A stretch of DNA of 64,000 nucleotides, from sequence record OQ718158.1; one strand, 5' to 3'. Each line of letters begins with the position of its first letter. The first letter of the stretch is position 1. The DNA comes from Escherichia phage vB_Ec-M-J. Shown here piece after piece: positions 6,438-44,735 of this stretch. The translations under genes were made by a program, and so were the position numbers. The notes under the pieces are model-generated. The model was given only the letters and a program-made list of their open reading frames with translations. It made no database searches and was not told where the DNA came from.

Positions 6438-6438
6438 T

Positions 6439-7346: not shown

Positions 7347-7348
7347 TA

Positions 7349-9455: not shown

Positions 9456-9985
9456 GAAAAATTAACATTAATGATTATGATGCATTACAAGATTTATCAA
9501 AAAAGATTCGCACTATCGTACCAGTACTGAAAAAATGCAGTACTGGATTAATTGATCCTAGTACAGTTATTAGTGAGAAGTACGATTTCCATAAACTGTT
9601 ACAAGGGAATGGTGCATTCCAGAAGTGTGAGATACGTGAGAAACACGTCATTGATACATCATTGCTTTCAATTGGTTCAGCCGTTCATAAGAATGTTGTA
9701 TACCTTGAATCCAGATCTGAAACTATTCGACAGATGACTTTTAAGAAAAAGTGTACTGAAATTGACGTGTACACTATGATATGGGGTTATCCAGAGTTAT
9801 ATCGTACTATTAATATTCCTAAGTACAATTACAATTCATTTGAAGAACAGTGCTTTCAACTATCTTGTACTGATCCTGACTATGCTATTATTCAGTTCTA
9901 TATGGAATTACAGATGGCATTTAACAGTAATTTAAATATCAATTTATTAAAGGTTGATTTCGATGAAGTATTCAAAAACATTTAA
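9452..9985 (+). CDS. hypothetical protein, family A
   Basis: TTG start overlapping the upstream TGA, GAAGAGG RBS; motif EEQCFQLSCT. Confidence 0.55.
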   Translation: MRKININDYDALQDLSKKIRTIVPVLKKCSTGLIDPSTVISEKYDFHKLLQGNGAFQKCEIREKHVIDTSLLSIGSAVHKNVVYLESRSETIRQMTFKKKCTEIDVYTMIWGYPELYRTINIPKYNYNSFEEQCFQLSCTDPDYAIIQFYMELQMAFNSNLNINLLKVDFDEVFKNI

Positions 9986-10181
9986 TCGAATTGAATACAT
10001 GAGAACTGTGAGTGCAGTGTGGGACATATGGTTCACTACTAAACCAAAAATGGATTACCATGACTTTAAGCTATTGTTCTTCGTTGGCTCTAACAAACAG
10101 GATGTTGCAATGAAGGGTTATATTCAGCACTTACAGGAACTAATCCAGAAGAGAATATATGAAAATAATAGACCAAGATGA
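9954..10181 (+). CDS. hypothetical small protein
   Basis: 75-aa ORF; weak similarity to the next small ORF. Confidence 0.45.
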   Translation: MISMKYSKTFNRIEYMRTVSAVWDIWFTTKPKMDYHDFKLLFFVGSNKQDVAMKGYIQHLQELIQKRIYENNRPR

Positions 10182-10350
10182 TATTGCTAAACTATTCAAT
10201 ATATATTCTTCTAAAATGATGCAAACCGACTCATATAGTACTGAATTCAAAGAATTAAAAGTACTGATGTATTTGGGCACACAGTATCAGGAACAAGTTG
10301 TTAAAGAATATATTGATTCTTTACAGAAGGATATCCGTTATGTACAATGA
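10159..10350 (+). CDS. hypothetical small protein
   Basis: 63-aa ORF. Confidence 0.45.
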   Translation: MKIIDQDDIAKLFNIYSSKMMQTDSYSTEFKELKVLMYLGTQYQEQVVKEYIDSLQKDIRYVQ

Positions 10351-10894
10351 ACTTGACTTAGCATTTGAGCGTGTAAAAATCTTCATTGAAACTTATCTTA
10401 TGCATGAAACTATACTGAAAACAAAAGGAATATGGTTCACTGATAAATTTCTTACTATGGCTATGAGAGGTGGAATGAAACATCTGTACTGCACAGATAA
10501 TGCAAGAATTTCAGTACTGAATTATGATGAAAGTGTAGCATCCAGTACCAGTTTAATTTCTACATACAATGATAATGTTATTAGTATTATGTGCAATATG
10601 AATGTCCCATCTATTTCTGTATATAAAAACTGTGATAGTTCATTGGAGTACAAGATTGAGCAGTACTTATATCCTAACACAGAAGAAAACATCTTTCAAA
10701 ATAGTCTTATGTGGGATGATACATCTACTAAGTGCATATATCTTTATAATAAATTAAAAGAGTACATTGTTGATAGTTCAATTAGTACTGCTGTATTCAG
10801 TGTTACTGTTTTTAATGATAATCGTGAAGATATGAGTTATTACAGAGACATTGTAAGAATACATGCAATGTATAAGGATCTACTATGTTATTAA
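10340..10894 (+). CDS. hypothetical protein, family A
   Basis: ATG 10340 after AGAAGGA; motif EENIFQNSLMW. Confidence 0.6.
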   Translation: MYNELDLAFERVKIFIETYLMHETILKTKGIWFTDKFLTMAMRGGMKHLYCTDNARISVLNYDESVASSTSLISTYNDNVISIMCNMNVPSISVYKNCDSSLEYKIEQYLYPNTEENIFQNSLMWDDTSTKCIYLYNKLKEYIVDSSISTAVFSVTVFNDNREDMSYYRDIVRIHAMYKDLLCY

Positions 10895-11487
10895 ATGCAA
10901 ATAAATGTTGTAGTACTGAGGTTCATTTGTATTTTAAGAAATTAGTAAATGATATTATCTATATGCAAGAAATCATTTATCACAAAAGAATGGACTTAGA
11001 AAAAGCATTAGTTCAGTTCTCTTTTAATCTCGATGGTGATATATCGTTAGATGGTGATGGATTGCGTATAGCATTTGACGGTAATACAAATAGGGTTTTC
11101 TTTTGGATAGATAATAAATTATGTTCATCAATATGTCGTACTTTTTATAACCCTATTTCGGACTTATATCAATTGGTGTATTCTAAAGGTGCAGTTGAAG
11201 CATCATACGGTGATAGCTTTGCACTAGGGAAGAGTATCCCATATATGCAATCATTTGATATTGAATTAGTCAGTACTGATGAAGATGCAATGTTCACAAA
11301 TGATATAACAATGCAGCGTGAATCTGCAATGAGATATATTACAAATTCTATGCATACATTCTTCGAAAGAGCAGAATTTGATAATGTGTACATAGCAAAT
11401 GTAAATATTTTTACTGACCTTTGTCAGTTCTTGAGAAGTATTTTTGATTTCGATGAAAGCTATTGTAAGCTTTATACTGAGGTTTAA
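10885..11487 (+). CDS. hypothetical protein (possibly degenerate family A)
   Basis: 200-aa ORF; weak motif DAMFTNDITMQ. Confidence 0.5.
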   Translation: MLLNANKCCSTEVHLYFKKLVNDIIYMQEIIYHKRMDLEKALVQFSFNLDGDISLDGDGLRIAFDGNTNRVFFWIDNKLCSSICRTFYNPISDLYQLVYSKGAVEASYGDSFALGKSIPYMQSFDIELVSTDEDAMFTNDITMQRESAMRYITNSMHTFFERAEFDNVYIANVNIFTDLCQFLRSIFDFDESYCKLYTEV

Positions 11488-11492
11488 ATGCC

Positions 11493-11852
11493 ATGAATAC
11501 CATTAGTATTACGTACTACACAACGAAAAAATACGTTTGTTGTTTACTTTCATTAAAGACAAATGATGATATGTTTGAAATGGCGGCATATACATTAGGA
11601 TTATCCGAGGATGGTTTTCAATGTCATGAAGCGTACTCAAATACACGTGAAGATACAATTGATACTACTTTAATGCAAGAAGATGAGTTGTTTCAAGAAA
11701 GTTTAGTATGGGATAAAAAATACTATTGTGATTTTGATTTTCTTTGTTTAATCCAGAAAGAAATGAAAAGGATCTTCGACAATTATCCGGTGAAGAGATT
11801 GAGTACTAAGCCGGAGCAGTACAGGAGAATTTTATTCCGTTATGAAGACTGA
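11493..11852 (+). CDS. hypothetical protein, family A (ELFQESL subfamily)
   Basis: motif EDELFQESLVWDKKY. Confidence 0.65.
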   Translation: MNTISITYYTTKKYVCCLLSLKTNDDMFEMAAYTLGLSEDGFQCHEAYSNTREDTIDTTLMQEDELFQESLVWDKKYYCDFDFLCLIQKEMKRIFDNYPVKRLSTKPEQYRRILFRYED

Positions 11853-12180
11853 ATTAGTAAAAATAATGTACGCAACTCACACCAAGTTATTATTGGTTAA
11901 AATGGATTACAACAGAAAACATAATGAATTCTGTACATTAATCCGAAATGAGGAATCATTTACATTGCGTACAAATGATAAGCCAATGCTAACTATAAAT
12001 GATTTTTCAGGTTTAGATACAGGTGAATTGTTTCAGGAGTCATTAGTACTGGATAGTAGTATACATTTGGAAATTGAAGTACTACAACAGTACCAGATAC
12101 TTTTGAATCGTATTATGGAAAATTATCCATGTGAAGTTGGTGGACCAATGCAATTCAAATCAAAGATGTATGAACTATGA
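11842..12180 (+). CDS. hypothetical protein, family A (ELFQESL subfamily)
   Basis: motif TGELFQESLVLD. Confidence 0.65.
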   Translation: MKTELVKIMYATHTKLLLVKMDYNRKHNEFCTLIRNEESFTLRTNDKPMLTINDFSGLDTGELFQESLVLDSSIHLEIEVLQQYQILLNRIMENYPCEVGGPMQFKSKMYEL

Positions 12181-12187
12181 GGTTAGT

Positions 12188-12721
12188 ATGTTAGATAAAA
12201 TAAAGAACGAGGGAACTCTATACAATCATCTTAAGTTGGATACGTTCGAGGCAGCAATCAGTACTGCACAAGATATAATTGATATTATCAAGTACATTAA
12301 AGAAAATAAGTTAAAATGTGTGAAAACGCCAGAACGTACAATGTACAAAGATGACGACCTTCACGTATCAGTTGTTAAGCCAAAAGATAAGGATGGTAAT
12401 AGAGATTTCTATAATAACAGTGCACAGTATGAATGTGAATATGATCCCGAATTTAGAGGTGGATTCATGTGCTTCAGTAAAACAGATACTTCACATGTTG
12501 AGATACGTACATTAAAAGGTCTAGGTAGATTTGAGTTCATGGATATAGAACTAAATGAAGAAAACTACTTCCAACAATCATTACTTAATACTGAATACAA
12601 TTTAGGTGTACTATTCATGTACAAGTACTTATATGAGCACTTAAATGAAGACTTCTATCTGGACTTAGAAGATTACCATTTAGTATGGAAAGAAATGGTA
12701 GAACTTCGTGAGAACTCTTGA
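12188..12721 (+). CDS. hypothetical protein, family A
   Basis: ATG 12188 with GAGG RBS 12179-12182; motif EENYFQQSLL. Confidence 0.65.
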   Translation: MLDKIKNEGTLYNHLKLDTFEAAISTAQDIIDIIKYIKENKLKCVKTPERTMYKDDDLHVSVVKPKDKDGNRDFYNNSAQYECEYDPEFRGGFMCFSKTDTSHVEIRTLKGLGRFEFMDIELNEENYFQQSLLNTEYNLGVLFMYKYLYEHLNEDFYLDLEDYHLVWKEMVELRENS

Positions 12722-12747
12722 CACCCTCCAAATCTTTGTGATATAAT
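12718..12747 (+). promoter_or_regulatory. sigma70-like promoter (TTGACA-N18-TGATATAAT)
   Basis: -35 TTGACA 12718-12723, extended -10 TGATATAAT ending 12747, 34 nt upstream of the gene at 12781. Confidence 0.6.
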
Positions 12748-12780
12748 CTCTTTATATTAATTGTAAAGGGTTATATCACA

Positions 12781-13263
12781 ATGTCCAAAGACCTATCATT
12801 TAGCAATGCACAAAAAATCGCACAAAATATCATTAAACTTCATAAGTTCCTTTTAACAGTTAAAGAGAATATAATTCTCCCACGATGCACACTTTATGCG
12901 TACAAAAATTATTTGTCAATGAATAGCAATTTGTTGCATACTACAGATGAGAATTTCTGTGGTATTCGTGTACTTGACGATGCACCAACAGGGGATTTTA
13001 TCTCATATTGTTTCCATACATCTGATAGTTTTAAGTACTATCATCCTAGATTTAATGATGATGAATATGAATATGACACATTTAATGTTAGATCAGAAGA
13101 AGAATTCTTCCAGTACAGTACTTTGTACAATGAGAGAATCGTGTTTAGTTCTACAATTTTTACAGTACTTAAAGATGAACTCAATGACGCAGATGATAGA
13201 TTCTATATGGATTTAAACTTCGTAGATGAAATCATTGAGTACATGGAGAAAAATGGTCTATGA
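12781..13263 (+). CDS. hypothetical protein, family A
   Basis: motif SEEEFFQYSTLY. Confidence 0.7.
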   Translation: MSKDLSFSNAQKIAQNIIKLHKFLLTVKENIILPRCTLYAYKNYLSMNSNLLHTTDENFCGIRVLDDAPTGDFISYCFHTSDSFKYYHPRFNDDEYEYDTFNVRSEEEFFQYSTLYNERIVFSSTIFTVLKDELNDADDRFYMDLNFVDEIIEYMEKNGL

Positions 13264-13742
13264 TTACAACAGAATATGATTACGATGGTGTTTTAGAATT
13301 TGCATCTAACATTCATCGCATTGCAAAGGAGTTCAGAAGTCCCCAACCTTTCGGTGGAATGCCTTTTGGTGGAATGTTCCAATATGACCAATTCAGTTCA
13401 ACCAAAGGAAGACTTGCCTTTAAAAATAATAAGGGCAATCAAGTATATGCTGAGTTCTTTGACGATAATGACTTTCACTACAGAGCTGAATATATTTCAT
13501 ATTGCCAAGGGTCTGATTTGAAGATTAACATTGATACATTTAGAGATTCAGTGTTTATCCCTTATAGTGAGTTAGTTTTCATGACAGAAGAAATGTACTT
13601 CCAAGGGTCTTGTATTCATGATGCAAAAGTACTTAATGCTATATTACTTTATGGTGCACTACTTCATCATTACAAATACAAACAACGATTCTTTATAGAT
13701 TTAGTTGTATACCATCAATGCGTGGATTATTTGAATGCATAA
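13260..13742 (+). CDS. hypothetical protein, family A
   Basis: motif TEEMYFQGSCIH. Confidence 0.65.
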   Translation: MITTEYDYDGVLEFASNIHRIAKEFRSPQPFGGMPFGGMFQYDQFSSTKGRLAFKNNKGNQVYAEFFDDNDFHYRAEYISYCQGSDLKINIDTFRDSVFIPYSELVFMTEEMYFQGSCIHDAKVLNAILLYGALLHHYKYKQRFFIDLVVYHQCVDYLNA

Positions 13743-14097
13743 TACAACAACAATTCAGTACATGACGGATGGCAATGATTGCTTTGCTTCAAGATATGAA
13801 TTCATCAAGAACCATTTTGTAACCTATATCCCTGAATATAATCAGTTTTATCTACAGATTTACCAAAATGATTCATATATGAATGAGATATATTCTGAAA
13901 TAAAAATCCCTGATTATAGTACTTTATCAGAAGAGGAATTGTTTCAGGAGAGCACTGTCAATACTGAAGATGTGTACGAACTAATGGAATACCAGAAGGT
14001 ACTTAAATATTTCCATGAAGTTCAGGATATACAAATGGATAGTGTTAAAACGTGGAATTATAACACATACGAGGTAAATTATGTTCGAAATGATTAA
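13735..14097 (+). CDS. hypothetical protein, family A (ELFQESL subfamily)
   Basis: motif EEELFQESTV. Confidence 0.65.
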   Translation: MHNTTTIQYMTDGNDCFASRYEFIKNHFVTYIPEYNQFYLQIYQNDSYMNEIYSEIKIPDYSTLSEEELFQESTVNTEDVYELMEYQKVLKYFHEVQDIQMDSVKTWNYNTYEVNYVRND

Positions 14098-14494
14098 AAT
14101 TATGCAACGATGCATTGTTGACCAACATGGAATATATGGATATAGTTTAAGTGCAGCTATTGACAAAAACAAAACAACCTATGTAAGCTATAATTCAGTA
14201 CTTGGATTTGATATATTCATTGATGCCAACAATAAAATCAAACAAGCCAAGGATGTATCTATAATGACCCCTGATGAGCTATTTCAGTACAGCTTAGTTC
14301 TGCCCACCTGTATTGATTTACAACGCCTAGGAGCTATACAGAAGGTTTTACGCGAACATAAAGTACAACCAAATAAAATTACACACATTCCAGAAACATT
14401 CTACAAACCCATAGAAGTAGAAACACCTGATTATATGTTAAGTGATGATGAGTTCTACAAGAAACACTTCCCTGGTAAAGTTTGGAGAGATTAA
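14081..14494 (+). CDS. hypothetical protein, family A
   Basis: GAGG RBS; motif PDELFQYSLV. Confidence 0.6.
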   Translation: MFEMIKIMQRCIVDQHGIYGYSLSAAIDKNKTTYVSYNSVLGFDIFIDANNKIKQAKDVSIMTPDELFQYSLVLPTCIDLQRLGAIQKVLREHKVQPNKITHIPETFYKPIEVETPDYMLSDDEFYKKHFPGKVWRD

Positions 14495-14976
14495 TGAACC
14501 GAAAGTACAGAGAAACTATGAAGTTCGCTAAGGAGTGTTTAGAGACAGTTGATTTCATTTTCGATAACAAAGACTCATTGGGTCGCCACTTCGTAATTAC
14601 AAAGAAAGAAGATAAGAGATACAAATGTCAACGATTAGGATACAGTATTGAGTTCTCCTTAATGATTGATGGCATGATAAACTCCTTATATGAATGTGGT
14701 AAGACTGATTACATTTCATTTAGATCTTGGAGTGAACGTGTCATGTTCTTGACTCCAAATGGAGTTGTATATCCTTTTCTTGATGATTTATCAGAAGAAA
14801 GTTACTTTCAAAATAGTTTAATTTACACAGAAAAAGAACTCAAAATGCTATTCATTATGTCGTACTTTAAAAAGTACTGCAATTTTAAATCATTATCTTT
14901 TGAGATCTCTGCAATGAAAGTATTCATTAAAAATGTAAAAGAATTAAAGAGGATTTACGATGTACATAGAAAATGA
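14494..14976 (+). CDS. hypothetical protein, family A
   Basis: ATG 14494 overlapping upstream TAA, GGAGAG RBS; motif EESYFQNSLIY ... IMSYFKKY. Confidence 0.6.
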   Translation: MNRKYRETMKFAKECLETVDFIFDNKDSLGRHFVITKKEDKRYKCQRLGYSIEFSLMIDGMINSLYECGKTDYISFRSWSERVMFLTPNGVVYPFLDDLSEESYFQNSLIYTEKELKMLFIMSYFKKYCNFKSLSFEISAMKVFIKNVKELKRIYDVHRK

Positions 14977-15502
14977 TAATGTAAAATGCATTGCCGACAT
15001 TTGTATAAAATTAATGAAAATTTTCATTAACCCAAAATACAAGACTCGTTCTTTACGTCATAATATTGATGATCATTGTGTAATTACTATTCTAGGTAGT
15101 ATGCTTGATGTAAAGTACGATGGTAAATTGTTATTCGGTGTCCGAGAAGAGAAGATAGATGATGTCTTCTTTTCTCCTAAAGATAAGTTTGAACCTTCTG
15201 ATTATAAAGTAATTATTCGTGATGATAGTATCTACATTAGTAGTGACTATTCAAATTACGTCGAACAGATATACACTGAAAATGTTGACTACAACCATGA
15301 ACTACTAGATTTACCAACATCAGACATAGATATGGAGAGAATCAAATTTTCATTATCAAATAATGAGTACTTAGGTATACAAACATATTATGCACTTCAG
15401 GGAAAGATTCCACCTGCGATGTATATAAGAATTGAGATTGGTAATGTATTCAGTGATACGGTTATATCAATTGCTGATAAAATATTGAAGGTACAATTAT
15501 GA
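14960..15502 (+). CDS. hypothetical protein
   Basis: 180-aa ORF; AGAGGA RBS; family motif not evident. Confidence 0.5.
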   Translation: MYIENDNVKCIADICIKLMKIFINPKYKTRSLRHNIDDHCVITILGSMLDVKYDGKLLFGVREEKIDDVFFSPKDKFEPSDYKVIIRDDSIYISSDYSNYVEQIYTENVDYNHELLDLPTSDIDMERIKFSLSNNEYLGIQTYYALQGKIPPAMYIRIEIGNVFSDTVISIADKILKVQL

Positions 15503-17218: not shown

Positions 17219-17802
17219 TGCAAGCTGAACACATTCAAATTATGAAATTGATGCATGACATTGCAGAACTATCTGAAAAGCACAACATTACTGAACATGA
17301 GCCTATTGGAAATTATCGTCTTAAAGTTGAATGCAAATCACCATATCGTTTTGGTTCAGTAGTACTGGAGTCTTATAAAGTTTACGATTATGGAACGACG
17401 AAAAAAGGTTCATGGGATACTATGGCAATGTATATCCGAACATCAAGGCATAGTGAGCAAATCGGTTCCATTACTCCAAACATGATATTTGTCAATGCTT
17501 TACACGAAGATATTAATCGAATTGTTGAATCTAATTTTGATGACGTAGAGAATGATACATATTTGGAAATTCCACCAGAACTAGATCAAAGTGAAGACAT
17601 TCGTGAAGCATACATTTTCCAGAGATCAGTACTTGACAACTTCAAGGAGTTTGAGTACATGATGCTTTGCTATGAAACTGCAAAAGCTATTGACACTGGT
17701 GAATTGGTAATGTATAGTAAGTTCATTAACTGTGAATCCGATACATTAAAAGAGCTACACACGGCAATCAAAAACATCAAGGATACATATGAACGCTTAT
17801 AG
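17218..17802 (+). CDS. hypothetical protein, family A
   Basis: motif EAYIFQRSVL. Confidence 0.6.
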   Translation: MQAEHIQIMKLMHDIAELSEKHNITEHEPIGNYRLKVECKSPYRFGSVVLESYKVYDYGTTKKGSWDTMAMYIRTSRHSEQIGSITPNMIFVNALHEDINRIVESNFDDVENDTYLEIPPELDQSEDIREAYIFQRSVLDNFKEFEYMMLCYETAKAIDTGELVMYSKFINCESDTLKELHTAIKNIKDTYERL

Positions 17803-18367
17803 TTATATGACAGCCCGACACCAACAGCTATATGATATCAGTACAAAGATGCTACACATTGTTGGTAGTGCCAAAGAAATTAACAAACATTACCTCATTC
17901 GTGATGTGTCATTTTCATCTAAATGTATGTCCAAAGAATATTACGATCACGGTATTCTTACTATTTCTGGTGCCAGGAATATTTGTATTGTAAAAAATAA
18001 TAGTAAAAGTAATGAAGAGTGCGAGATTAGATCCGATATCCAAATTAATGATGATGGAAGTTTTTCACACCATCCATTTCATATTAGTACTGTTGGTGTT
18101 TTATATAATATTAAAGTACTATTCGGTGATAAAGAGTATGAGTTAAAAGCTATCAATCCAGAATCAAGTACAGTTGATGAAGAACTGTTTCAGATGAGCA
18201 CCGTTATACCTGAAGAGGTTCTTAGTACTGTTATTTTTTGTAGTTTAATTTATCACACATACAAAAAGTTCCAGTTCGATTTCCACATTTTAGGAACGTA
18301 CATCTTCAATACTTTGAATGTTGATCGTTTAAAAGCATTAAATGCAGCAATGGATAAGGTGCTATAA
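17789..18367 (+). CDS. hypothetical protein, family A
   Basis: motif DEELFQMSTVI. Confidence 0.6.
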   Translation: MNAYSYMTARHQQLYDISTKMLHIVGSAKEINKHYLIRDVSFSSKCMSKEYYDHGILTISGARNICIVKNNSKSNEECEIRSDIQINDDGSFSHHPFHISTVGVLYNIKVLFGDKEYELKAINPESSTVDEELFQMSTVIPEEVLSTVIFCSLIYHTYKKFQFDFHILGTYIFNTLNVDRLKALNAAMDKVL

Positions 18368-30009: not shown

Positions 30010-30289
30010 TGATTCGAATCTAACAGGTTATTTTTTGCAAGAATCAATGATCAAATTCAGTGAACATTTTCCAGTACTAGATGGTGTGGAGATGTGGCAT
30101 GTAAAACCACTCTTCCACACTTTCAGTAAAGAGCACAAAATGTTATTGACTGAGGCTTGTAAATCGAATAAAATATGCCAAATCAAGATTGGTGTAAATG
30201 TCTACAAAGGATTAGTCATCTTTTTTGACAACAACAGCAACTACTTTTATATTGTTAAGGAGCATTACGTTGACAAATACAAATACTAA
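30002..30289 (+). CDS. hypothetical protein
   Basis: ATG 30002 overlapping upstream TGA (ORF track offers 29981). Confidence 0.45.
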   Translation: MSDDSNLTGYFLQESMIKFSEHFPVLDGVEMWHVKPLFHTFSKEHKMLLTEACKSNKICQIKIGVNVYKGLVIFFDNNSNYFYIVKEHYVDKYKY

Positions 30290-30887
30290 TACATACTTTC
30301 GTTATCTTCGCCTAGGGCTTTCCCTACGCCCAATCCGTGGTAAGTGTGATTCACTTGCTGATTTGGATTATGCATATGCATTACATTGTGATGGTGTTCA
30401 ATATGTATTAGGTGACTATGGCACATTCGAAGAATCCAATGACAGTTCAGAAATTATTGCTGGTGTTGCTAACCTTAACAACATTGCCAATAGTTCTCGT
30501 CATGAAATCGTTCTTGAAATTCAGAACTTCATTGAGAAAAATACTGGCAAGCGTACATGGTCATATGTCGGTACTGATGCACAAATGTCAATCGCATTTG
30601 GTAACGAAGATGGTTATGTAGCACAACTTATTATGGATTTCGAATCAGAAGAGAAGTTCCTAGAATACAAGGAAAAAATCATCCAATCCTTGTTGCAAAT
30701 GGGTATTCCTGAAGATCGTATGCCTGAAATTCAAAGCATTGATGAGTTTGTTCTTATCCCATCTGATGAAAAATATGATGCGATGTTTACAGCACTGAAC
30801 ATTCCTGGTGTAGTTGTTGAGTACTTCGATGATGGTGATGCTGACATTTACCTAGATCTCGACGACGATGATGACGATGATGAATAA
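30270..30887 (+). CDS. hypothetical acidic protein with poly-Asp C-terminus
   Basis: TTG 30270 eight nt after AAGGAG (alternative ATG 30225); ends DLDDDDDDDE. Confidence 0.45.
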   Translation: MTNTNTNTYFRYLRLGLSLRPIRGKCDSLADLDYAYALHCDGVQYVLGDYGTFEESNDSSEIIAGVANLNNIANSSRHEIVLEIQNFIEKNTGKRTWSYVGTDAQMSIAFGNEDGYVAQLIMDFESEEKFLEYKEKIIQSLLQMGIPEDRMPEIQSIDEFVLIPSDEKYDAMFTALNIPGVVVEYFDDGDADIYLDLDDDDDDDE

Positions 30888-30893
30888 TACATA

Positions 30894-30923
30894 TAGCCCG
30901 ACATAAGTTCGGGCTATTTTTTT
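30894..30923 (+). terminator. rho-independent terminator
   Basis: hairpin TAGCCCGA-cataagt-TCGGGCTA followed by TTTTTTT. Confidence 0.7.
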
Positions 30924-30933
30924 AAGGGGAAAT

Positions 30934-31203
30934 ATGAATTACAAACATATACAATTCACTTATATGGAATTATTTAAATTACACCATAATCACAGAAGTA
31001 CTAACACAATTAATAAAAATGCGTTTACTCATAAATTATGGTCAAATTACCTAGAAGAATTACGTGAGTATTTTATTGATACTGAAATTTTCATTAATGG
31101 AAAAAAACGAAAGATACTTAGAGTCGATAGTTTTGGTGGTAGATTAGTACTTTCATATAAATTTGATAACGACTTATTCTCTGTTGATTTGGTGAATATA
31201 TGA
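30934..31203 (+). CDS. hypothetical small protein, family B
   Basis: 89-aa ORF; first of a tandem run of ~90-aa paralogs. Confidence 0.55.
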   Translation: MNYKHIQFTYMELFKLHHNHRSTNTINKNAFTHKLWSNYLEELREYFIDTEIFINGKKRKILRVDSFGGRLVLSYKFDNDLFSVDLVNI

Positions 31204-31460
31204 ATTATAAAGATTTCCAATTAACATTCAAGTGCATTCGTGACCTAGCAAATAAAAATAATAGTATATTTTTAGAAGATACATGTATTGAAATGATTAA
31301 TATTGTGCGTGAGAGGATTAAAGAAAAATTCAGTACTGTAATTATCAACAACGATCATGCAGAATTTTCAGATATAATCATTAAGCTCGATGGTAAAGTA
31401 GAGGTACAGTTCTACACTGATTTTGGATTTACGAGTGTTCCTCTGGAGATATTCCCTTGA
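31200..31460 (+). CDS. hypothetical small protein, family B
   Basis: 86-aa tandem paralog (MNYKDFQLTF). Confidence 0.55.
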   Translation: MNYKDFQLTFKCIRDLANKNNSIFLEDTCIEMINIVRERIKEKFSTVIINNDHAEFSDIIIKLDGKVEVQFYTDFGFTSVPLEIFP

Positions 31461-31768
31461 AATTAAATTTGAATGATGTTCAATTCACGTATAAAAATAT
31501 ATATGGTTTGTATGACATGTATCTTTTTAGTGGGAAGATTGGTGAACATGTCGAATCAAAAGAATCACCATTTATTAATAATTACTATGATTACTTAGAT
31601 TCTATTGCTGAATATATAAAAAAGAATTACAGTACTTACACTGATGGAGATGACATATTTGAATATTCAGGTGTAAAATCTTATCAAGGTATTATCCATG
31701 TAGAATTTCTTGAAAAAACTGATAGGGAATTTATGGAGATTAAAGTTATGAAGTTAACGGACCTATAA
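31457..31768 (+). CDS. hypothetical small protein, family B
   Basis: TTG start overlapping upstream TGA; tandem paralog (LNDVQFTYKNIY). Confidence 0.45.
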   Translation: MKLNLNDVQFTYKNIYGLYDMYLFSGKIGEHVESKESPFINNYYDYLDSIAEYIKKNYSTYTDGDDIFEYSGVKSYQGIIHVEFLEKTDREFMEIKVMKLTDL

Positions 31769-31778
31769 GAGTTGACAT

Positions 31779-32090
31779 ATGAATATTAATGATATACAAT
31801 TCACATACAAATTTTTGTATATCCAATACGCTACGGTTGATGCTGGAGAATATCTCTACGGTGAAATCTATCGTTCGGTATGGATAAAGTTTTTGGATGA
31901 ATTACATGAATATTACCATGATTTGTGTATAGTTCGTGATAATAAAATATACAAATTCCGCGATATTGTTAGTCATAGCGGTAAGCTACGATTGGAATTA
32001 AGTACCGATAGTGATGTTGATTGGATTGGTGTAAATTTACTGGAGTTGGAGAATGAAAAACAACTTAAAGGAAATACAAGTATTTTATAA
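31779..32090 (+). CDS. hypothetical small protein, family B
   Basis: tandem paralog (MNINDIQFTYKFLY). Confidence 0.55.
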   Translation: MNINDIQFTYKFLYIQYATVDAGEYLYGEIYRSVWIKFLDELHEYYHDLCIVRDNKIYKFRDIVSHSGKLRLELSTDSDVDWIGVNLLELENEKQLKGNTSIL

Positions 32091-32337
32091 ATTCTTATAC
32101 TTGTCATATGTAAAAGATGAGTACTATGAAAGTGTGTATTATTTTTTATGGCAACATTACCGTACTATAGTAAGAGATTTATATATAGGAAAATCTATCA
32201 TATCCAATGGTGAAAAATGTATATGTACTGATGTTGTTAGTTTTAATGGTTCTTTAACACTGTGTTTCAGATGCGATAATAATAGTGGGTCATTTTCATT
32301 AAACGTATATCAGTTAGAAGGAATAAATTTTGAATAA
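32053..32337 (+). CDS. hypothetical small protein, family B
   Basis: tandem paralog (LKEIQVFYKFLY). Confidence 0.5.
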   Translation: MKNNLKEIQVFYKFLYLSYVKDEYYESVYYFLWQHYRTIVRDLYIGKSIISNGEKCICTDVVSFNGSLTLCFRCDNNSGSFSLNVYQLEGINFE

Positions 32338-32530
32338 ATGTCCATATTGCAACAGTACTCAATTAGCTCGTTTCCGTTTAGATTCAGACTGGGCCACTGG
32401 TGCTGGTGATTTCTTTCCCATCAATGATGATTCGGAATACACTGAAGAACAGCACAAAGATTTTGATAAATCATGGCGACCTGACATTGAGTGCATTTAT
32501 TGCCTTAATTGTGAGCGTATCCATGACTAA
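32330..32530 (+). CDS. small zinc-ribbon protein
   Basis: CPYC ... CIYCLNC cysteine pairs; TTG start after AAGGA. Confidence 0.45.
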   Translation: MNKCPYCNSTQLARFRLDSDWATGAGDFFPINDDSEYTEEQHKDFDKSWRPDIECIYCLNCERIHD

Positions 32531-32786
32531 AGCTGAACTGATCGTGCAAACACTGCGTTTATTGAGGGATTTAGATATCCCACGCATGGATGTGAAACTT
32601 GAAGATATCTACATTGAATCTCTTAGTGAAGATTACACCGATACCGTAATGATGCTGAATGACGTGCTTTATCGTATAGATAGCATCAGTCGTCTTGGAA
32701 GTACTTTAAAAGTGAATATGGAAAGAGTTGATAAACTTTACGTACATATATATAGTCTACCCATTTCAATATTAAACTATAGATGA
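32523..32786 (+). CDS. hypothetical protein
   Basis: ATG 32523 overlapping upstream stop. Confidence 0.45.
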   Translation: MTKAELIVQTLRLLRDLDIPRMDVKLEDIYIESLSEDYTDTVMMLNDVLYRIDSISRLGSTLKVNMERVDKLYVHIYSLPISILNYR

Positions 32787-33073
32787 ATATTATATTGATA
32801 CAAAAAACATATGCGTTATTGATGAAAGAATATACTAATACTTATGATGAAAAGTGCAGTGCAAATCATAATATGTATAAATTCATCACTCAAGAGTACA
32901 GGGATTATATATATGCTGCGTTAGTTGGTAGATATTTCAGTACTAAAAAACGTAAAGAACTCAAAGTTGTAGATATTACTTTTTTCTACAACGGGCATAT
33001 AACAATTCATGGTGTGGAACATAATTCACAAATATATCGTAACTACTCATCCAATGAGGTAACATTTTTATGA
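32783..33073 (+). CDS. hypothetical small protein, family B
   Basis: 96-aa ORF (MNIILIQKTYALL). Confidence 0.5.
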   Translation: MNIILIQKTYALLMKEYTNTYDEKCSANHNMYKFITQEYRDYIYAALVGRYFSTKKRKELKVVDITFFYNGHITIHGVEHNSQIYRNYSSNEVTFL

Positions 33074-33243
33074 GAGCATTATTTTTTATCTGGAGTCTTT
33101 TTTCACTAGCAGTACTGACAGTAAGTGGGATTTGTTTCCTTTCGACAATGAATGTCTGGTACATTAATTTACTATTCCCATTCGTAGGTGTAGGTTTAGG
33201 ATTTACTTTACATAGTGTTTGTAAGGATTTTAATGGCAAATAA
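33070..33243 (+). CDS. hypothetical small membrane protein (57 aa)
   Basis: ORF not in the ORF track; two hydrophobic segments; ATGA overlap at both ends. Confidence 0.35.
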   Translation: MRALFFIWSLFSLAVLTVSGICFLSTMNVWYINLLFPFVGVGLGFTLHSVCKDFNGK

Positions 33244-33517
33244 ATCGAATGAAGTACTTGTTGCTGAAACAATGAAGATGGTTTATGCCATAACAACTAG
33301 TAATGATTTGTCTTACCCAATTAAGTCCAAGTTGAGGGATATAACTCTTCAGGTTATACAGCAGTACTACAAATCTAAACACAAAAGTATTATTAATGTT
33401 TATCGTGACTATGAAAGGATTCGCATTTTGTTCTGGAACAAGAATCGAGTTCGTTCGGAATGTGATATAGAAAACTTTAAATTTGAGAATCTTTATTGTT
33501 ACAAAGCGGGACAATAG
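33233..33517 (+). CDS. hypothetical small protein, family B-like
   Basis: ATG 33233 after AAGGA. Confidence 0.5.
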   Translation: MANKSNEVLVAETMKMVYAITTSNDLSYPIKSKLRDITLQVIQQYYKSKHKSIINVYRDYERIRILFWNKNRVRSECDIENFKFENLYCYKAGQ

Positions 33518-33535: not shown

Positions 33536-33575
33536 ATTGGGTATGGAACAATAACTAACACAAGGAGTGTGTAAA

Positions 33576-34499
33576 GTGCCAAGTAAAAAGCCAGATTCTG
33601 AAGTATTCAGACTGGTTGATGAAAAATTGAGTTCAATTGGTTCATCGGTAAAAATGGATAGAACAACATACACAACCATATCAAACAAATCAACTTTTTT
33701 CTGTGATGAATGTGGGTTTAGTAAAAATATCATAGTTAGGAATGTGTACAAAAATGGAATATTTTGTCATTGTCCCACATTTAAAACTTTATATAATAAA
33801 TTGGGTGAAATTAATTCAAAATTAAAATTAGATATTTCCACATTCACAACTACAAAAAACAAATCTAGATTTTATTGTGACGATTGTGCGTTTGAAAGAT
33901 ATATGACGGTGCATGATGTTAAGTCTAGAGGTGCATATTGTAAATGTCATTCATTATATTGTATGCCGTTAGATATCGACGAAGCATATAACACTATTAT
34001 GAATAAAATAAAAGATTACTCAAATACAATACATATGGATAAATCTACATACCGTGGTACACAATATAAGGTTAGATTTTATTGTACAGAGTGTAATTTT
34101 GACAAATATATTAATTATAGTAGAGTTAAATGTGGAACTCTTAACTGCAATTGTATCAGACCAATCCCAGAAGAAAGTAAATTATATATTTTAGGAATAT
34201 ATGAACAAAATATTTTAATAAAATATAAAGTTGGTATTTCTACAAAGATTGATAAATCAAGACTAATTAGTATTAGGTCAAAAACTAATTTTATAGTAGA
34301 GGAATTATATTATTTTACTGGAAATACCGAAGTTATTAAAAGTGTAGAATATAATATTTTAAATCTGCTTAAAAATAGTAGTAAATTGTCAAAGGATTAT
34401 TTTGGCGATGGGTATACTGAAACATTTGATTTACAAGATATAAATCTTGTTATTGATTATGTATGTAAATGTTTACTCGAAAATAAATTAAAAATATGA
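33576..34499 (+). CDS. T5orf172/GIY-YIG-like domain protein with three N-terminal zinc-ribbon repeats
   Basis: three ~45-aa repeats each with CxxC ... CxC; C-terminal LYILGIYEQNILIKYKVGIS ... FGDGYTETF; GTG 33576 eight nt after AAGGAG. Confidence 0.55.
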   Translation: MPSKKPDSEVFRLVDEKLSSIGSSVKMDRTTYTTISNKSTFFCDECGFSKNIIVRNVYKNGIFCHCPTFKTLYNKLGEINSKLKLDISTFTTTKNKSRFYCDDCAFERYMTVHDVKSRGAYCKCHSLYCMPLDIDEAYNTIMNKIKDYSNTIHMDKSTYRGTQYKVRFYCTECNFDKYINYSRVKCGTLNCNCIRPIPEESKLYILGIYEQNILIKYKVGISTKIDKSRLISIRSKTNFIVEELYYFTGNTEVIKSVEYNILNLLKNSSKLSKDYFGDGYTETFDLQDINLVIDYVCKCLLENKLKI

Positions 34500-38860: not shown

Positions 38861-39097
38861 ATGAAAGTTGAAGTTCAGCATAGTATTGTTCAGGATATGT
38901 CAGTAGTTAAATTTCTTTCCTTGAAAGATTATTTCAGATGTATCAAGTTCCTAGAAGAATCTCAATTACAGTGGACCCCATTAAAGTACAGTTCATCCAA
39001 TGATACTGCTAGTATTCGTTGTGATGAATCTGTACTTGTGAAAATCTCCAAGCGATTTGGGATTGGAAAATACAATGATAAACAATGCACAAAGTAA
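38861..39097 (+). CDS. hypothetical protein
   Basis: 78-aa ORF; AAGGAG RBS. Confidence 0.5.
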   Translation: MKVEVQHSIVQDMSVVKFLSLKDYFRCIKFLEESQLQWTPLKYSSSNDTASIRCDESVLVKISKRFGIGKYNDKQCTK

Positions 39098-39386
39098 TTT
39101 GCTATATATAAAGTCAGTTGAAGCTGAAATTAAAAATTCAGTTCAAACTATCGTCGAGGAAATGATTGACAAATACAAGAGCAATCTTATTGGAAAGAAA
39201 GTCAGATGTTGGGATTACACATTCAAACACTGGTACGATTCCGAGATTGTGAAAGTTGATGTGAATACTGATAGTAATGGTCTAATTAATGGTATTGCGT
39301 ATGTTGGTGTTTTAATACGCAAGGGAACGCCACAGGAATGGCTCACCTATCATAATATAGAGCATGTTAAATTTATAGAGGATTAA
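39075..39386 (+). CDS. hypothetical small protein, family B-like
   Basis: KYKSNLIGKKVRCWDY ... pattern; start uncertain (39057 or 39075). Confidence 0.45.
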   Translation: MINNAQSNLLYIKSVEAEIKNSVQTIVEEMIDKYKSNLIGKKVRCWDYTFKHWYDSEIVKVDVNTDSNGLINGIAYVGVLIRKGTPQEWLTYHNIEHVKFIED

Positions 39387-40322: not shown

Positions 40323-40328
40323 TACAAA

Positions 40329-40358
40329 AGGGATCATATATTGGTCCCTTTTTCTTTT
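40329..40358 (+). terminator. rho-independent terminator
   Basis: hairpin GGGATCA...TGGTCCC followed by TTTTTCTTTT. Confidence 0.6.
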
Positions 40359-41059: not shown

Positions 41060-41354
41060 GTACTATCAAAATTTATTCAATTACATAAAACTAATAGATG
41101 ATCTTGCTTTCGATTTTCTTAGTACTGATAAAGTTGGTGAGCCTTTATATTATGATTGTATTGGAACACTTTGTTCAGATGAAAAGAATATATTAGAAAA
41201 TAAATTACCGTCATCACAGTGCTTAATCAATGGTTCCAAAGCAGTAATAACTGATGTTAATTTTTATAAATCTCTTAATACTATTTGTTATGTATTCAAT
41301 AACACTGTGTTTAAACATGTAACAAGTAATATTAAATCTGTGAGGTTCTTATGA
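41052..41354 (+). CDS. hypothetical protein
   Basis: ATG 41052 after AAGAGGA. Confidence 0.5.
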   Translation: MNEYYQNLFNYIKLIDDLAFDFLSTDKVGEPLYYDCIGTLCSDEKNILENKLPSSQCLINGSKAVITDVNFYKSLNTICYVFNNTVFKHVTSNIKSVRFL

Positions 41355-41647
41355 ATTTAAAACTTTTGTTAGAACAGGTACATTTATTGTATAGCTGTGC
41401 TGATGGTTCTGATAAGGAGTATAGTGAAGTTTATTTAGAACTGTTTAGAACGGAAATACACATAATTAGAAGATACTTAATTGATAATAAAACTGAAGTA
41501 AAAGTTAGATACCATAATGGTACTTTAAAGAATGGTATAATTATTGGATTGATAGTTACACGAATGTCTAGTAATATTAAAGTTGCAGTTAGATTAATGA
41601 CTGATGATGGTGTCTACACCATAGAAGTAAGTGAGATTATATATTAA
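41351..41647 (+). CDS. hypothetical small protein, family B-like
   Basis: NKTEVKVRYHNGTLKNGIIIG pattern. Confidence 0.5.
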   Translation: MNLKLLLEQVHLLYSCADGSDKEYSEVYLELFRTEIHIIRRYLIDNKTEVKVRYHNGTLKNGIIIGLIVTRMSSNIKVAVRLMTDDGVYTIEVSEIIY

Positions 41648-41953
41648 ATGGATATACAAACATTCAATAAACTAAAGTACTATGACAATGGTTTTGCTAT
41701 TATCATTGATGAACTAGATGGAATACCATATGAGTATCATAATGATGTAATGAAGATAGTAAAAAGTATTTGTAATGATTTAAAAACTATTTTCGAAAAT
41801 GAATATGTATACGACTTAGGTACAAACAATAAGAAACTATACATAAAGAAATTCTGTGGAACGCATTGTGGTCTGATGGTTGATTTAGGTTTAAGTGCTG
41901 ACAACAATTTCGAAGCATGTAGTTTATATCTGGATGAAATGCGAATCTCATGA
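41648..41953 (+). CDS. hypothetical protein
   Basis: 101-aa ORF. Confidence 0.5.
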   Translation: MDIQTFNKLKYYDNGFAIIIDELDGIPYEYHNDVMKIVKSICNDLKTIFENEYVYDLGTNNKKLYIKKFCGTHCGLMVDLGLSADNNFEACSLYLDEMRIS

Positions 41954-42001: not shown

Positions 42002-42340
42002 GTGGTTGTTGTGAATAACGATTTTTTAAAAATGTGGGAAAAAACAATAGTAATTCTATCTAGTTCATTAATGCACATTTTCAGTACTGATAATTCTTAT
42101 AGTTCACATACATTTGATTTAATATGTAATAACTATGTAAATGGTATATCAGATGAAATATGTCCATTCATTGCGTATTCACCGGATGGTATTGAAGAAT
42201 TTAATATATGCAACATCAGTTGTGGTTTTGGTGATTGGCTTGTGTTAAATGATCGAGGTGGAATCTGTTTATACATCGAAGATATTGGTAAATTTATATA
42301 CAAAGGAGTAGAATATGTTAACAATCGCAGCAGTTATTAG
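42002..42340 (+). CDS. hypothetical protein
   Basis: GTG start; Cys-rich 112-aa ORF downstream of a promoter. Confidence 0.4.
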   Translation: MVVVNNDFLKMWEKTIVILSSSLMHIFSTDNSYSSHTFDLICNNYVNGISDEICPFIAYSPDGIEEFNICNISCGFGDWLVLNDRGGICLYIEDIGKFIYKGVEYVNNRSSY

Positions 42341-42911
42341 TGTACTTGGTGTAGTTATTGCAGGTATGCTTGCATACAATTACAATCGTAGTGTTATCGG
42401 CTATGTACTACTTAGTCTAGTACTAACCCCAGTACTCACCATCGTTACTTTATTAGTGCTAGGTGAACGTAATATCAACTTCATGATTAATGATAAACGT
42501 GATCAGGTTACACCAGAACCTGAAAAAGTTATTCCTGAAGAACAAGAAGAACTTAAAGTTGAAGTTCAAATGCAAGTGAATGTTCACAATGCACTTGATG
42601 AAACTGATCCAAAAGTTAATGTTACTGTTGTTCCTGTCGTCAATGAAGTAAAGCCTAAAGCAGCACCGAAAAGTACTAAAGCACCAAAGAGCACCAAGAC
42701 TACAAAGAAAGCTCGCTATACTAAAGGGAAGAATAAAAACAAAGTCCAAGATGAACCACAACAAGGTACACACGACCATACTTCCCATATTATTACAGCA
42801 GCCACCACCGCAGCAATCGTAACGCCATATATCTCTTCTGCTGATACTGGTTCATATGATAGCTCTAGCTGTGATTCAAGCTCTAGTTCAAGTTCCGGTA
42901 GCTGTGATTAA
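42315..42911 (+). CDS. membrane protein with Lys-rich linker and Ser-rich C-terminus
   Basis: AGGAG RBS; two N-terminal hydrophobic helices; KAPKSTK repeats; SSSSSSSGSCD tail. Confidence 0.55.
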   Translation: MLTIAAVISVLGVVIAGMLAYNYNRSVIGYVLLSLVLTPVLTIVTLLVLGERNINFMINDKRDQVTPEPEKVIPEEQEELKVEVQMQVNVHNALDETDPKVNVTVVPVVNEVKPKAAPKSTKAPKSTKTTKKARYTKGKNKNKVQDEPQQGTHDHTSHIITAATTAAIVTPYISSADTGSYDSSSCDSSSSSSSGSCD

Positions 42912-42913
42912 CA

Positions 42914-43246
42914 ATGAAACATCTTGCACAATATAATCAGTACTTGATTGCGTTGCATCAAATGAAAGATGATTTCTATAAAAGTGCAGAAACAGAACTC
43001 GTCGGTAAGATAGTAAAATTTACTGACGAGTACATCAACCGATATGCGGAAATGGACGATGATCCAGAGTATGAATCATACTACCAGTACATAAATCCCA
43101 ATACAAGAATGAGAATTATTGAAATTATGAAATACGGTATACGTTTAATTGCACAAGTAGAATACATCAATCACGATGCAATTGATGCCGCTGCCTTTGG
43201 TGATGAAATAAGTTTAGAATATCTTATTCAAGTTGATGAGGAATAA
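42914..43246 (+). CDS. hypothetical protein
   Basis: 110-aa ORF. Confidence 0.5.
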   Translation: MKHLAQYNQYLIALHQMKDDFYKSAETELVGKIVKFTDEYINRYAEMDDDPEYESYYQYINPNTRMRIIEIMKYGIRLIAQVEYINHDAIDAAAFGDEISLEYLIQVDEE

Positions 43247-43248
43247 TA

Positions 43249-43464
43249 ATGACTACATTTTTTGCAATATATGGATTTGTTGCGTTTTGCTCATTTATAT
43301 GTAACTTTCTAGTACTGAATTGGAAATGTTTCAAAGATGAAATCATAACTGCAATGAGTCTACAATCAGCAGCACTAATGGCTATAATTTGGCCTGTAAC
43401 TATGGTGTATCTTTTTATCTCAATAACAAAAGATATCATATCCCACTTCAAGAGAAAGAAATAA
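43249..43464 (+). CDS. hypothetical small membrane protein
   Basis: 71 aa; GAGGAA RBS; two hydrophobic segments. Confidence 0.45.
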   Translation: MTTFFAIYGFVAFCSFICNFLVLNWKCFKDEIITAMSLQSAALMAIIWPVTMVYLFISITKDIISHFKRKK

Positions 43465-43718
43465 TGTTCAACACCGACTATTCACATTTGCGATATCTTA
43501 TGTCTTTGGCTGATGATTTTATTAATGATTTGAAGCCGAAGTATATTGGACAAGAAGTACGTTTGATAAACTCAAGGGGTTATGGGAAGTACATTATCGC
43601 TGATATGTATATTAGCGGTGGTGAATGGCGTTTCAAAGTTAATACGTATCTTAAAGATGGTTCTTTTGCAGGTACACAAGTTACAAAACACACTAACATT
43701 ATATGGTTGGAACAATAA
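43464..43718 (+). CDS. hypothetical small protein, family B-like
   Basis: ATG 43464 overlapping upstream TAA; KYIGQEVRLINSRGYGKY pattern. Confidence 0.5.
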   Translation: MFNTDYSHLRYLMSLADDFINDLKPKYIGQEVRLINSRGYGKYIIADMYISGGEWRFKVNTYLKDGSFAGTQVTKHTNIIWLEQ

Positions 43719-44465: not shown

Positions 44466-44735
44466 ATGCATGATGATATTAAAAAATCATTGTATGATTT
44501 ATATATTATGAAAAAAACCATCAATTCTATACTTGCCGACCAGATCAAACAGGTACGTAACTTCCTATCAAAAAAACTTATTGGTGCAGAGGTTAAATTC
44601 TATTACAAAAAAAATGTCGTGGTTGATGGTGTTATTAGAAGAGTAGTTACAATTTCAGACCAAACAATATATGTTGAAGTTGAATATGATGGTAAATTAT
44701 CACAATTAAGTACTGAAGATTTAACATTTTTATAA
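44466..44735 (+). CDS. hypothetical small protein, family B-like
   Basis: KKLIGAEVKFYYKKNVVVDGVI pattern. Confidence 0.5.
   Translation: MHDDIKKSLYDLYIMKKTINSILADQIKQVRNFLSKKLIGAEVKFYYKKNVVVDGVIRRVVTISDQTIYVEVEYDGKLSQLSTEDLTFL

Follow-up and report, generated by a model that had tools for sequence, protein, structure and literature searches.

In T4-like phages, short and uncharacterised early and middle open reading frames (ORFs) of the pseT.1–3 and cd.1–5 type, whose products are not virion components, are tightly packed on one strand between the genes for RNA ligase, polynucleotide kinase and nucleotide metabolism (general knowledge). To our knowledge, these T4 ORFs do not form paralogous arrays. 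Here we describe a similar layout in a 64,000-nucleotide stretch of DNA (hereafter the window) from Escherichia phage vB_Ec-M-J (sequence record OQ718158.1), in which an initial annotation had proposed an expanded family of small proteins, about 90 amino acids (aa) long, partly arrayed in tandem from position 30934 and partly dispersed among T4-like enzyme genes. The window genes are likewise short, non-virion, closely packed and on one strand; however, no sequence similarity to the T4-like ORFs was found, and in tblastn one of the dispersed proteins (D6, see below) matched only Asteriusvirus records. Our analysis shows that most of these small genes belong to two families, a tandem array (family B) and a looser dispersed set (family D), built on one architectural plan.

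Jumbo phages of the 121Q group encode more than 500 proteins each, over 80% of which have no known function. In the literature searched, paralogues in this phage group are mentioned only in general terms and the families reported here are undescribed. The window comes from a 121Q/PBECO4-type jumbo coliphage (genus Asteriusvirus, ~350 kb): the match of its 30–46 kb portion is 97.9% to Escherichia phage EC.P1 and 84–98% to a further 34 jumbo phages of this group. All window genes examined are on the plus strand, with a G+C content of ~30–37%. The small-gene region is flanked on one side by genes for a Dam-type methyltransferase and a cytidylyltransferase, and on the other by those for RNA ligase 1, polynucleotide kinase/phosphatase, Ser/Thr phosphatase, peptidyl-tRNA hydrolase and DNA ligase; as had been proposed, the small genes lie amid those for T4-like enzymes (RNA ligase, polynucleotide kinase, Ser/Thr phosphatase).

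All 14 ORFs of the initial annotation are in frame at their given positions. Thirteen begin with ATG and the third tandem ORF (31457) with TTG; a Shine-Dalgarno-like sequence precedes most of them, and stop and start codons overlap at many gene junctions in the region. The ORFs were named in window order, B1–B7 being the seven ORFs of 30934–33517 and D1–D7 the seven dispersed ORFs (table 1); other genes are referred to by their start positions.

A tandem array of paralogous genes

In an all-against-all blastp comparison of the 135 window proteins, B4–B5, B1–B5, B1–B4 and B3–B4 were linked with E-values of 9e-7 to 5e-4, and all five of B1–B5 matched phrog_21004. Orthologue alignments, built from five related phages and a large protein collection, were used for profile comparison by hhalign and for hidden Markov model (HMM) tests. 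The hhalign probability was 75–99% in nine of the ten B1–B5 pairs, the exception being B2–B5 (~0). When each member was scored against a profile of the others in a leave-one-group-out test, with 500 shuffles as the null, B1–B5 obtained 19–62 bits and no shuffle reached the real score. The five proteins have in common an N-terminal M-N-x-x-D-I-Q-F-T-Y-K-x-L-Y helix and an invariant glycine in a beta-rich C-terminus. Judging by the agreement of blastp, phrog_21004, hhalign and HMM results, B1–B5 are true paralogues, as had been proposed from the helix motif and the glycine-containing beta-rich C-terminus of the tandem ORFs at 30934–32337.

Two additional genes downstream were assigned to this family. 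The gene 32523, which the initial annotation had not listed, recruits B1, B4 and B5 when used as the seed of an iterative search (such searches covered 1,166 ORFs, from both strands of the window plus six loci), and its 121Q and A4 versions contain EHYIGKSLILNN. B6 is a divergent member. Genes at the B6 position in Turkey5 and in a metagenomic (ENA) contig, on which the profile had not been trained, match the B profile at ~1e-6, and a repeat finder, which provides an independent grouping, detected a 29-nt direct repeat at the 5' end common to B6 and B1–B4. As delimited by these searches, the family B array consists of seven genes (B1–B5, 32523 and B6). A conserved zinc-ribbon gene is the sole interruption, and most array genes are coupled through overlapping stop/start codons. 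For example, the B2 start and the B1 stop overlap by 4 nt, and B5 overlaps the tail of B4 by 38 nt in a different frame; the B5 start at 32053 was accepted because the conserved N-terminal motif of the family is present.

The earlier grouping of both 32783 (B6) and 33233 (B7) with the tandem set therefore held in part: B6 belongs to it (19.8 bits, none of 500 shuffles as high), but B7 does not. In every comparison B7 gave hhalign probabilities of 6% or less, 55 and 209 of 500 shuffles scored as high, and a B7-seeded iterative search recruited only B7 orthologues. B7-type genes are tandemly duplicated in Turkey5 (L005 10986–11255 and 11256–11534) and in a metagenomic contig (L006 7175–7444 and 7445–7723).

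The zinc-ribbon gene (32330–32530) encodes 66 aa with four cysteines and is highly conserved inside the hypervariable array. Its DNA identity to 121Q, ph0011 and A4 is 95–96% and its protein is 70% identical to Klebsiella phage Muenster gp146; its neighbours are far more divergent. Two annotation errors were found among B5 orthologues: 121Q gp426 (L001 5104–5340) is called 16 codons short of the family N-terminus, and phAPEC6 (L007 2093–2427) has no gene call for this orthologue at all.

A looser family dispersed among enzyme genes

Seven genes, at 37165, 39075, 40548, 40808, 42914, 43464 and 44466, are grouped by profile comparison into a second, looser family (D), whose members lie interspersed with the genes for RNA ligase, polynucleotide kinase and phosphatase. 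Each dispersed ORF has a distinct PHROG and pairwise signals are weak, the best hhalign pairs being D3–D6 (87%) and D2–D4, D4–D6 and D2–D6 (44–51%). In the leave-one-out test, D1, D2, D3, D4, D6 and D7 scored 9–21 bits, and at most one of 500 shuffles was as high; control small proteins of the same region gave no score against the D profile. Proteins on which the profile had not been trained were also matched, namely the A4 orthologue of 42914 (4e-8) and Klebsiella phage Muenster gp155 (4.7e-10), whose gene lies directly upstream of RNA ligase. A [KL]-[YL]-x-G-x-x-V motif marks the end of the helix, in which G29 is invariant in the family D alignment and nearly so in a wider alignment, and V32 is nearly invariant. 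The 42914–43246 protein has an insertion after the first strand.

Six of the seven dispersed ORFs that had been united by a K-Y-x-G-x-x-V pattern are thus retained, whereas the seventh, 41351 (D5), leans to family B (73% vs. 1%). For both sets the similarity goes beyond composition, with none of 500 shuffles as high for B1–B5 and at most one for the D members.

A possible remote relative of family D is 35263 (table 1): its A4 orthologue was recruited by a D-seeded iterative search at 6e-4, and the search seeded with 35263 found orthologues only. The ORFs 35589, 41648 and 42002 were considered as extra members and were not supported by hhalign, HMM or iterative search. Small proteins of the 41648–41953 type occur as two adjacent copies in A4 (L003 17599–18236) and Turkey5 (L005 17605–18251), and one Turkey5 copy (17605–17937) was picked up, weakly, when family B seeded the iterative search.

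A shared predicted fold plan for the two families

AlphaFold models were obtained for B4 and for D6 as representatives of the two families. The B4 model (pLDDT 81, pTM 0.72) contains a two-helix hairpin (helices 3–22 and 25–45), a four-stranded meander (strands 49–53, 56–66, 69–75 and 82–86), a short helix and a low-confidence tail. The D6 model (pLDDT 83, pTM 0.69) has a helix at 6–27 and strands at 31–34, 42–51, 54–62, 68–75 and 79–81. The predicted plan of these 83–110-residue proteins is therefore an N-terminal helix (D) or helical hairpin (B) followed by a four- or five-stranded antiparallel beta-sheet, with a Y-[IVF]-G-[KQR]-x-[IV] type sequence at the junction of the helix and the first strand.

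In a fold search, the B4 model matched a 96-aa slurp01 protein, probably the B6 orthologue (TM 0.68/0.72), and, more weakly, several ~90-aa RaK2 proteins. A Foldseek search of BFVD with the D6 model gave nothing at E <= 0.001; beyond this cut-off it matched entry A0A097EY12 (TM 0.57/0.61, E 0.02), which was confirmed to be 121Q gp426, a B5 orthologue. The best hits of a profile search of PDB sequences (E 0.038–0.3) were unrelated proteins.

Several observations weakly suggest a link between the two families. B6, 32523 and D5 score above the shuffled null against both B and D profiles (0–1 of 100 shuffles as high). Starting from B, the iterative search picked up D6 and D7 orthologues of Turkey5 (6–8e-4); starting from D, it picked up a family B gene of that phage (1e-4). 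Neither search had taken in a minus-strand ORF or a protein longer than 170 residues by the time it converged, and there were no false positives. D5 appears to be an ambiguous or bridging member, closer to B. It was recruited by the B-seeded search in the first iteration, and its HMM scores are weak for both families (11.8 bits to B, 1/500 shuffles; 10.2 bits to D, 2/500). The ph0011 orthologue of D5 (L002 15252–15548, 98 aa) is annotated as 'Mononegavirus-type SAM-dependent 2'-O-MTase domain-containing protein', a name that is probably spurious because Pfam shows no such domain in the window copy.

The expansion proposed in the initial annotation is real (a seven-gene array and at least seven dispersed genes), but it concerns two families rather than one. 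A single family of 14 members is contradicted by the B versus D profile comparison (0.6%), by the unrelated 33233 and by 41351, which falls on the wrong side, leaving a remote superfamily link at best. We consider descent of B and D from one ancestor somewhat more probable than not.

Distribution and database status

When 1.84 billion cluster representatives were searched exhaustively with the B profile (HMMER), 19 proteins were returned at E <= 0.001; 17 of these (52–103 residues) are genuine relatives, whereas two long repeat proteins look spurious. All relatives whose source was checked come from the 121Q-type phage group, and one of the most divergent lies on a metagenomic contig with the same gene order. 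In a collection of 5.8 billion proteins, B and D profiles likewise matched only proteins of the 121Q group, and an enriched D profile yielded only further proteins of this group in a large-database search. Weak relatives are present in Klebsiella RaK2-type phages.

Neither single proteins nor all members of both alignments gave anything above threshold in Pfam, NCBIfam or PADLOC; PADLOC returned no match and NCBIfam only sub-threshold noise. SPAN, DUF4196, Cwp8_D2 and Cdc13_OB2 recurred as weak matches in these searches, and were rejected as inconsistent and below cut-off. The orthologues are already contained in PHROGs clusters of unknown function: phrog_21004, phrog_32291 and phrog_35943 for family B, phrog_28826 for B6, and phrog_28139, 31355, 29519, 33398, 37322 and 38615 for family D members. 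These are part of about a dozen unconnected clusters, from which it is not apparent that the tandem genes are paralogous, that B6 and 32523 belong with them, that the family D members form a group or that a superfamily may exist. Since such functionally unassigned PHROGs are the only record of the orthologues, we regard the present finding as a fresh example of a familiar process, whereby a very large phage genome undergoes lineage-specific expansion of its small accessory genes.

Copy number, exchange and selection

Five core B copies are present in the window, 121Q and ph0011, and three plus one in Turkey5. A4 also has five, three of which are B1-like and none of B2 or B3 type. The tree indicates old paralogue lineages with lineage-specific gain and loss. 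DNA identity calculated gene by gene changes abruptly at gene borders, giving sharp mosaic boundaries: B1–B3 are 87–90% identical to ph0011 vs. 69–79% to 121Q, whereas B4–B5 are 99–100% identical to 121Q vs. 74–75% to ph0011. Both 32523 and B6 are ph0011-like, D1 is 97% identical to A4, and the enzyme genes show 74–92% identity throughout the region. D2 could not be aligned at the DNA level over most of its length to 121Q, ph0011, A4 or Turkey5, and its protein is only 34–40% identical; the flanking genes are 86–95% identical to 121Q, ph0011 and A4 and 80–89% to Turkey5. From these alignments D2 (39075–39386) is best described as a clean whole-gene allele replacement. No other genes of this otherwise stable enzyme region vary, or are exchanged, as much as those of families B and D.

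The ratio of nonsynonymous to synonymous substitution rates (dN/dS) is ~0.15–0.6 in most informative comparisons of small genes vs. ~0.04–0.15 for the enzymes. The small genes are accordingly genuine, and purifying selection on them is several-fold more relaxed than that on neighbouring enzymes. Net charge is not conserved (pI 4.5–9.4).

The family B array arose through repeated local duplication, and both families change by gain and loss of copies together with whole-gene allele replacement between co-circulating phages. A protein of Salmonella phage SD-6_S16 (P0025, 96 aa, L008 2119–2409) combines a B2-type N-terminus with B3-type segments and may reflect a deletion or recombination involving adjacent paralogues or, equally, an assembly artefact; it was not used as evidence of unequal crossing-over because the record is full of fragmentary gene calls.

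Gene layout and neighbouring genes

The coordinates of the small genes and of two terminator-like hairpins are given in table 1. The hairpin in front of the array is a strong one and is followed downstream by AAGGGGAAAT-ATG of B1.

Table 1. Members, candidate members and a non-member of families B and D, and terminator-like hairpins, in window coordinates
Feature	Position	Strand	Evidence and remarks
Terminator-like hairpin + T-run (intrinsic type)	30893..30917	+	9-bp stem, 5 GC pairs, then TTTTTTT; 16 nt upstream of B1
B1, 89 aa, pI 9.3	30934..31203	+	phrog_32291 3.5e-29; phrog_21004 4.7e-6; hhalign 98.9% to B4; leave-one-out 51.5 bits
B2, 86 aa, most divergent of B1–B5	31200..31460	+	phrog_21004 1.2e-4; hhalign 95% to B3; leave-one-out 19.2 bits, 0/500 shuffles
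B3, 103 aa, TTG start overlapping B2 stop	31457..31768	+	phrog_21004 4.8e-35; hhalign 97% to B4; leave-one-out 34.3 bits
B4, 103 aa	31779..32090	+	phrog_21004 3.2e-44; AlphaFold model stands for family B
B5, 94 aa	32053..32337	+	hhalign 99% to B4; leave-one-out 51.3 bits
32523, family B member absent from initial annotation, 87 aa	32523..32786	+	orthologue group vs. B profile 70%, score 29.7, 0/100 column shuffles
B6, divergent family B member, 96 aa, pI 8.9	32783..33073	+	B HMM 19.8 bits, 0/500 shuffles; hhalign 74%, E 3e-5, 75 columns
B7, non-member	33233..33517	+	own small family phrog_32563
35263, possible remote family D relative, weak, 93 aa	35263..35544	+	hhalign 38% to D6, 26% to D profile
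D1, 87 aa	37165..37428	+	leave-one-out 11.5 bits, 0/500 shuffles; stop overlaps RNA ligase start
D2, 103 aa, immediately upstream of polynucleotide kinase	39075..39386	+	leave-one-out 12.0 bits, 1/500 shuffles; hhalign 51% to D4, 44% to D6
Second terminator-like hairpin	40326..40352	+	11-bp stem + T-run; between polynucleotide kinase and 40372/D3/D4 block
D3, 86 aa	40548..40808	+	blastp 5e-4 and hhalign 87% to D6; leave-one-out 14.4 bits, 0/500 shuffles
D4, 83 aa	40808..41059	+	hhalign 46–51% to D2 and D6; leave-one-out 9.1 bits, 1/500 shuffles
41052, remote B-like member absent from initial annotation, 100 aa	41052..41354	+	B-seeded search, iteration 2, at 1.1e-4; B HMM 9.5 bits, 4/500 shuffles
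D5, 98 aa, ambiguous/bridging, closer to B	41351..41647	+	hhalign 73% (E 3e-5, 84 columns) to B vs. 1% to D
42914, family D member absent from initial annotation, 110 aa, pI 4.5	42914..43246	+	orthologues vs. D profile 87%, score 35.4, 87 columns, 0/100 column shuffles
D6, 84 aa, family D hub	43464..43718	+	leave-one-out 17.6–23.2 bits, 0/500 shuffles; 16-nt overlap with Ser/Thr phosphatase start
D7, 89 aa, immediately downstream of phosphatase	44466..44735	+	19.0 bits untrained, 21.2 bits leave-one-out; 0/500 shuffles each

Further observations concern other genes of the window. The protein encoded at 30225–30887 has a low-complexity tail with a poly-Asp run (DLDDDDDDDE), and that encoded at 42315–42911 has N-terminal hydrophobic stretches and ends in a Ser/Cys-rich run (SSSCDSSSSSSSGSCD) after a Lys-rich segment. 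A 310-aa ORF at 33567–34499 contains three copies of a Cys-rich unit (F-x-C-D/T-E/D-C-x-F ... C-x-C); its only Pfam match is a sub-threshold one to CoiA_N. It has no DNA counterpart at the same site in 121Q, ph0011, A4 or Turkey5, and ph0011 holds a different 1485-nt gene there, so the site looks like an insertion hot spot or the position of a mobile gene. At ~5000–15000 there is a separate, larger paralogous family of 105–200 aa, in which neighbours are related with blastp E-values down to 1e-31 (e.g., 7349–7837 vs. 7815–8258). It is presumably the other family mentioned in the initial annotation; no link to it was obtained with either the B or the D profile.

Possible functions

None of phAPEC6 gp358c–gp392c, among which the counterparts of the small window genes lie, is among the 62 virion proteins of this phage identified by mass spectrometry (PMC7247149). 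Packaged internal or injected proteins of the T4 IPI type were accordingly rejected as a model. Acidic DNA-mimic anti-restriction proteins of the Ocr/ArdA type were also rejected; pI ranges from 4.5 to 9.4, several members are basic and there is no Pfam match. The RNA-repair genes of the neighbourhood have been linked by the phAPEC6 authors to countering the Prr abortive-infection system.

We tentatively favour the possibility that the B and D proteins are small, stoichiometric, non-catalytic binders of host or defence proteins, a reading that we place somewhat short of probable. It was reached because the proteins are small, non-catalytic, non-virion, lineage-confined, duplicated, fast-evolving, exchanged as cassettes and encoded near the Prr-linked region, all of which are circumstantial features. 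The helical part would then be the conserved scaffold and the variable sheet surface would set the target, while duplication and cassette exchange would diversify the targets. The term effector used in the initial annotation is in this sense a plausible guess, compatible with the data. A broader proposal, which we regard as unlikely, is that at least 16 of the ~40 genes at 30.9–44.7 kb form one old helix-plus-small-barrel superfamily that radiated through RaK2/121Q-type jumbo phages as an exchangeable binder toolkit, each allele being aimed at a different host defence or housekeeping protein.

A number of results weigh against these proposals. With regard to common descent, the direct hhalign comparison of the enriched B profile with the D profile is weak (0.6%, 3 of 200 column shuffles as high), albeit in the expected register; the match of the D6 model to A0A097EY12 is no better than those to unrelated ~60-residue phage proteins; and only two of the five D6 models were confident. 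With regard to function, no match was found to any characterised anti-defence or host-takeover protein, and, with a single low-divergence exception, gene-wide dN/dS stays below 1 in every comparison, so that no gene-wide positive selection was seen. The unconserved charge fits many different targets, but it equally fits the lack of any common mechanism. As to expression signals, a terminator-like hairpin lies directly upstream of B1, and a promoter scan found 89 promoter-like sites vs. 94 expected by chance. The scan was not used as evidence because the count is at chance level, and the literature searched yielded no transcriptome for the 121Q group.

The arrangement of the dispersed genes could also mean that their products are accessory or regulatory partners of the adjoining enzymes (D1 of RNA ligase, D2 of polynucleotide kinase, D6 and D7 of Ser/Thr phosphatase), each delivered in step by coupled translation. 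The stop codon of D1 lies across the start of the RNA ligase gene, D6 shares 16 nt with the beginning of the phosphatase gene, and 3 nt separate the end of D2 from the kinase gene. Klebsiella phage Muenster, too, has a D1-like gene (gp155) directly upstream of RNA ligase. However, conserved adjacency says little because the genomes are collinear throughout. Rates of evolution differ widely, D2 being 34–40% identical between phages vs. 78–95% for the kinase, and the tandem array, which adjoins no enzyme, would be left unexplained. We also know of no such subunit that T4 RNA ligase or kinase needs, and the partnership appears rather unlikely. Another model starts from the predicted fold. Sm and SH3-like barrels consist of five strongly bent strands, the fourth and fifth of which are joined by a short helical turn, and Sm proteins add an N-terminal helix and assemble into rings. 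The order of elements in the D6 model would fit, a helix being followed by five strands with a short helical turn ahead of the fifth, and the genes sit in an RNA-repair neighbourhood, which would suit nucleic-acid binders that regulate phage transcripts or take part in RNA repair. On the other hand, most members are acidic, and neither sequence nor fold-library searches matched a solved SH3, Sm, Tudor or KOW domain, the D6 model itself not having been set against the PDB; we consider such a role decidedly unlikely.

The remaining alternatives concern the reality of the families. That the resemblance within the dispersed set and between B and D reflects composition and a common alpha-then-beta layout, with B1–B5 as the sole real family, would agree with the weak D pairwise signals (hhalign 15–87% in linked pairs, blastp mostly not significant), with the low B–D profile score and with the equal scores of the D6 model against unrelated ~60-aa phage proteins. 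This is quite unlikely and, for family D, already largely refuted: all six D members beat at least 499 of 500 shuffles in the leave-one-out test, untrained orthologues of other phages match at 4e-8 to 5e-10, and no score was ever obtained by control small proteins or by ~580 ORFs from the minus strand of this AT-rich DNA. It is extremely unlikely that the array consists of decaying functionless duplicates, or that the ORFs are not genes. Copy number does vary and the alleles are very divergent, but dN/dS is well below 1 in all comparisons except the one at low divergence, orthologues persist across phages that differ by 40–65% in these proteins, the AlphaFold models are confident, and most genes have Shine-Dalgarno-like sequences and coupled stop/start junctions.

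Comparison with multigene families of other large viruses

A sizeable block of phage proteins without assigned function is thus shown to be more than a collection of unrelated orphans: its members fall into one or two families that are expanding and have a defined fold plan. About 16 genes on two scaffolds provide a rational list of candidates for host-range or counter-defence roles, and several annotations have been corrected. The value of these results lies in annotation and in the choice of candidates; by themselves they leave the general understanding of phage biology unchanged.

Small accessory proteins that are duplicated in tandem, differ in copy number and diverge quickly are likewise known from the multigene family (MGF) genes of African swine fever virus (ASFV) and from poxvirus K3L amplification (general knowledge). 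These belong to eukaryotic viruses and have demonstrated roles in immune evasion, and nothing suggests that they are homologous to the phage families. If the small proteins of the window do constitute one superfamily serving as a binder toolkit, they would be to bacteriophages what such multigene families are to the large DNA viruses of eukaryotes.

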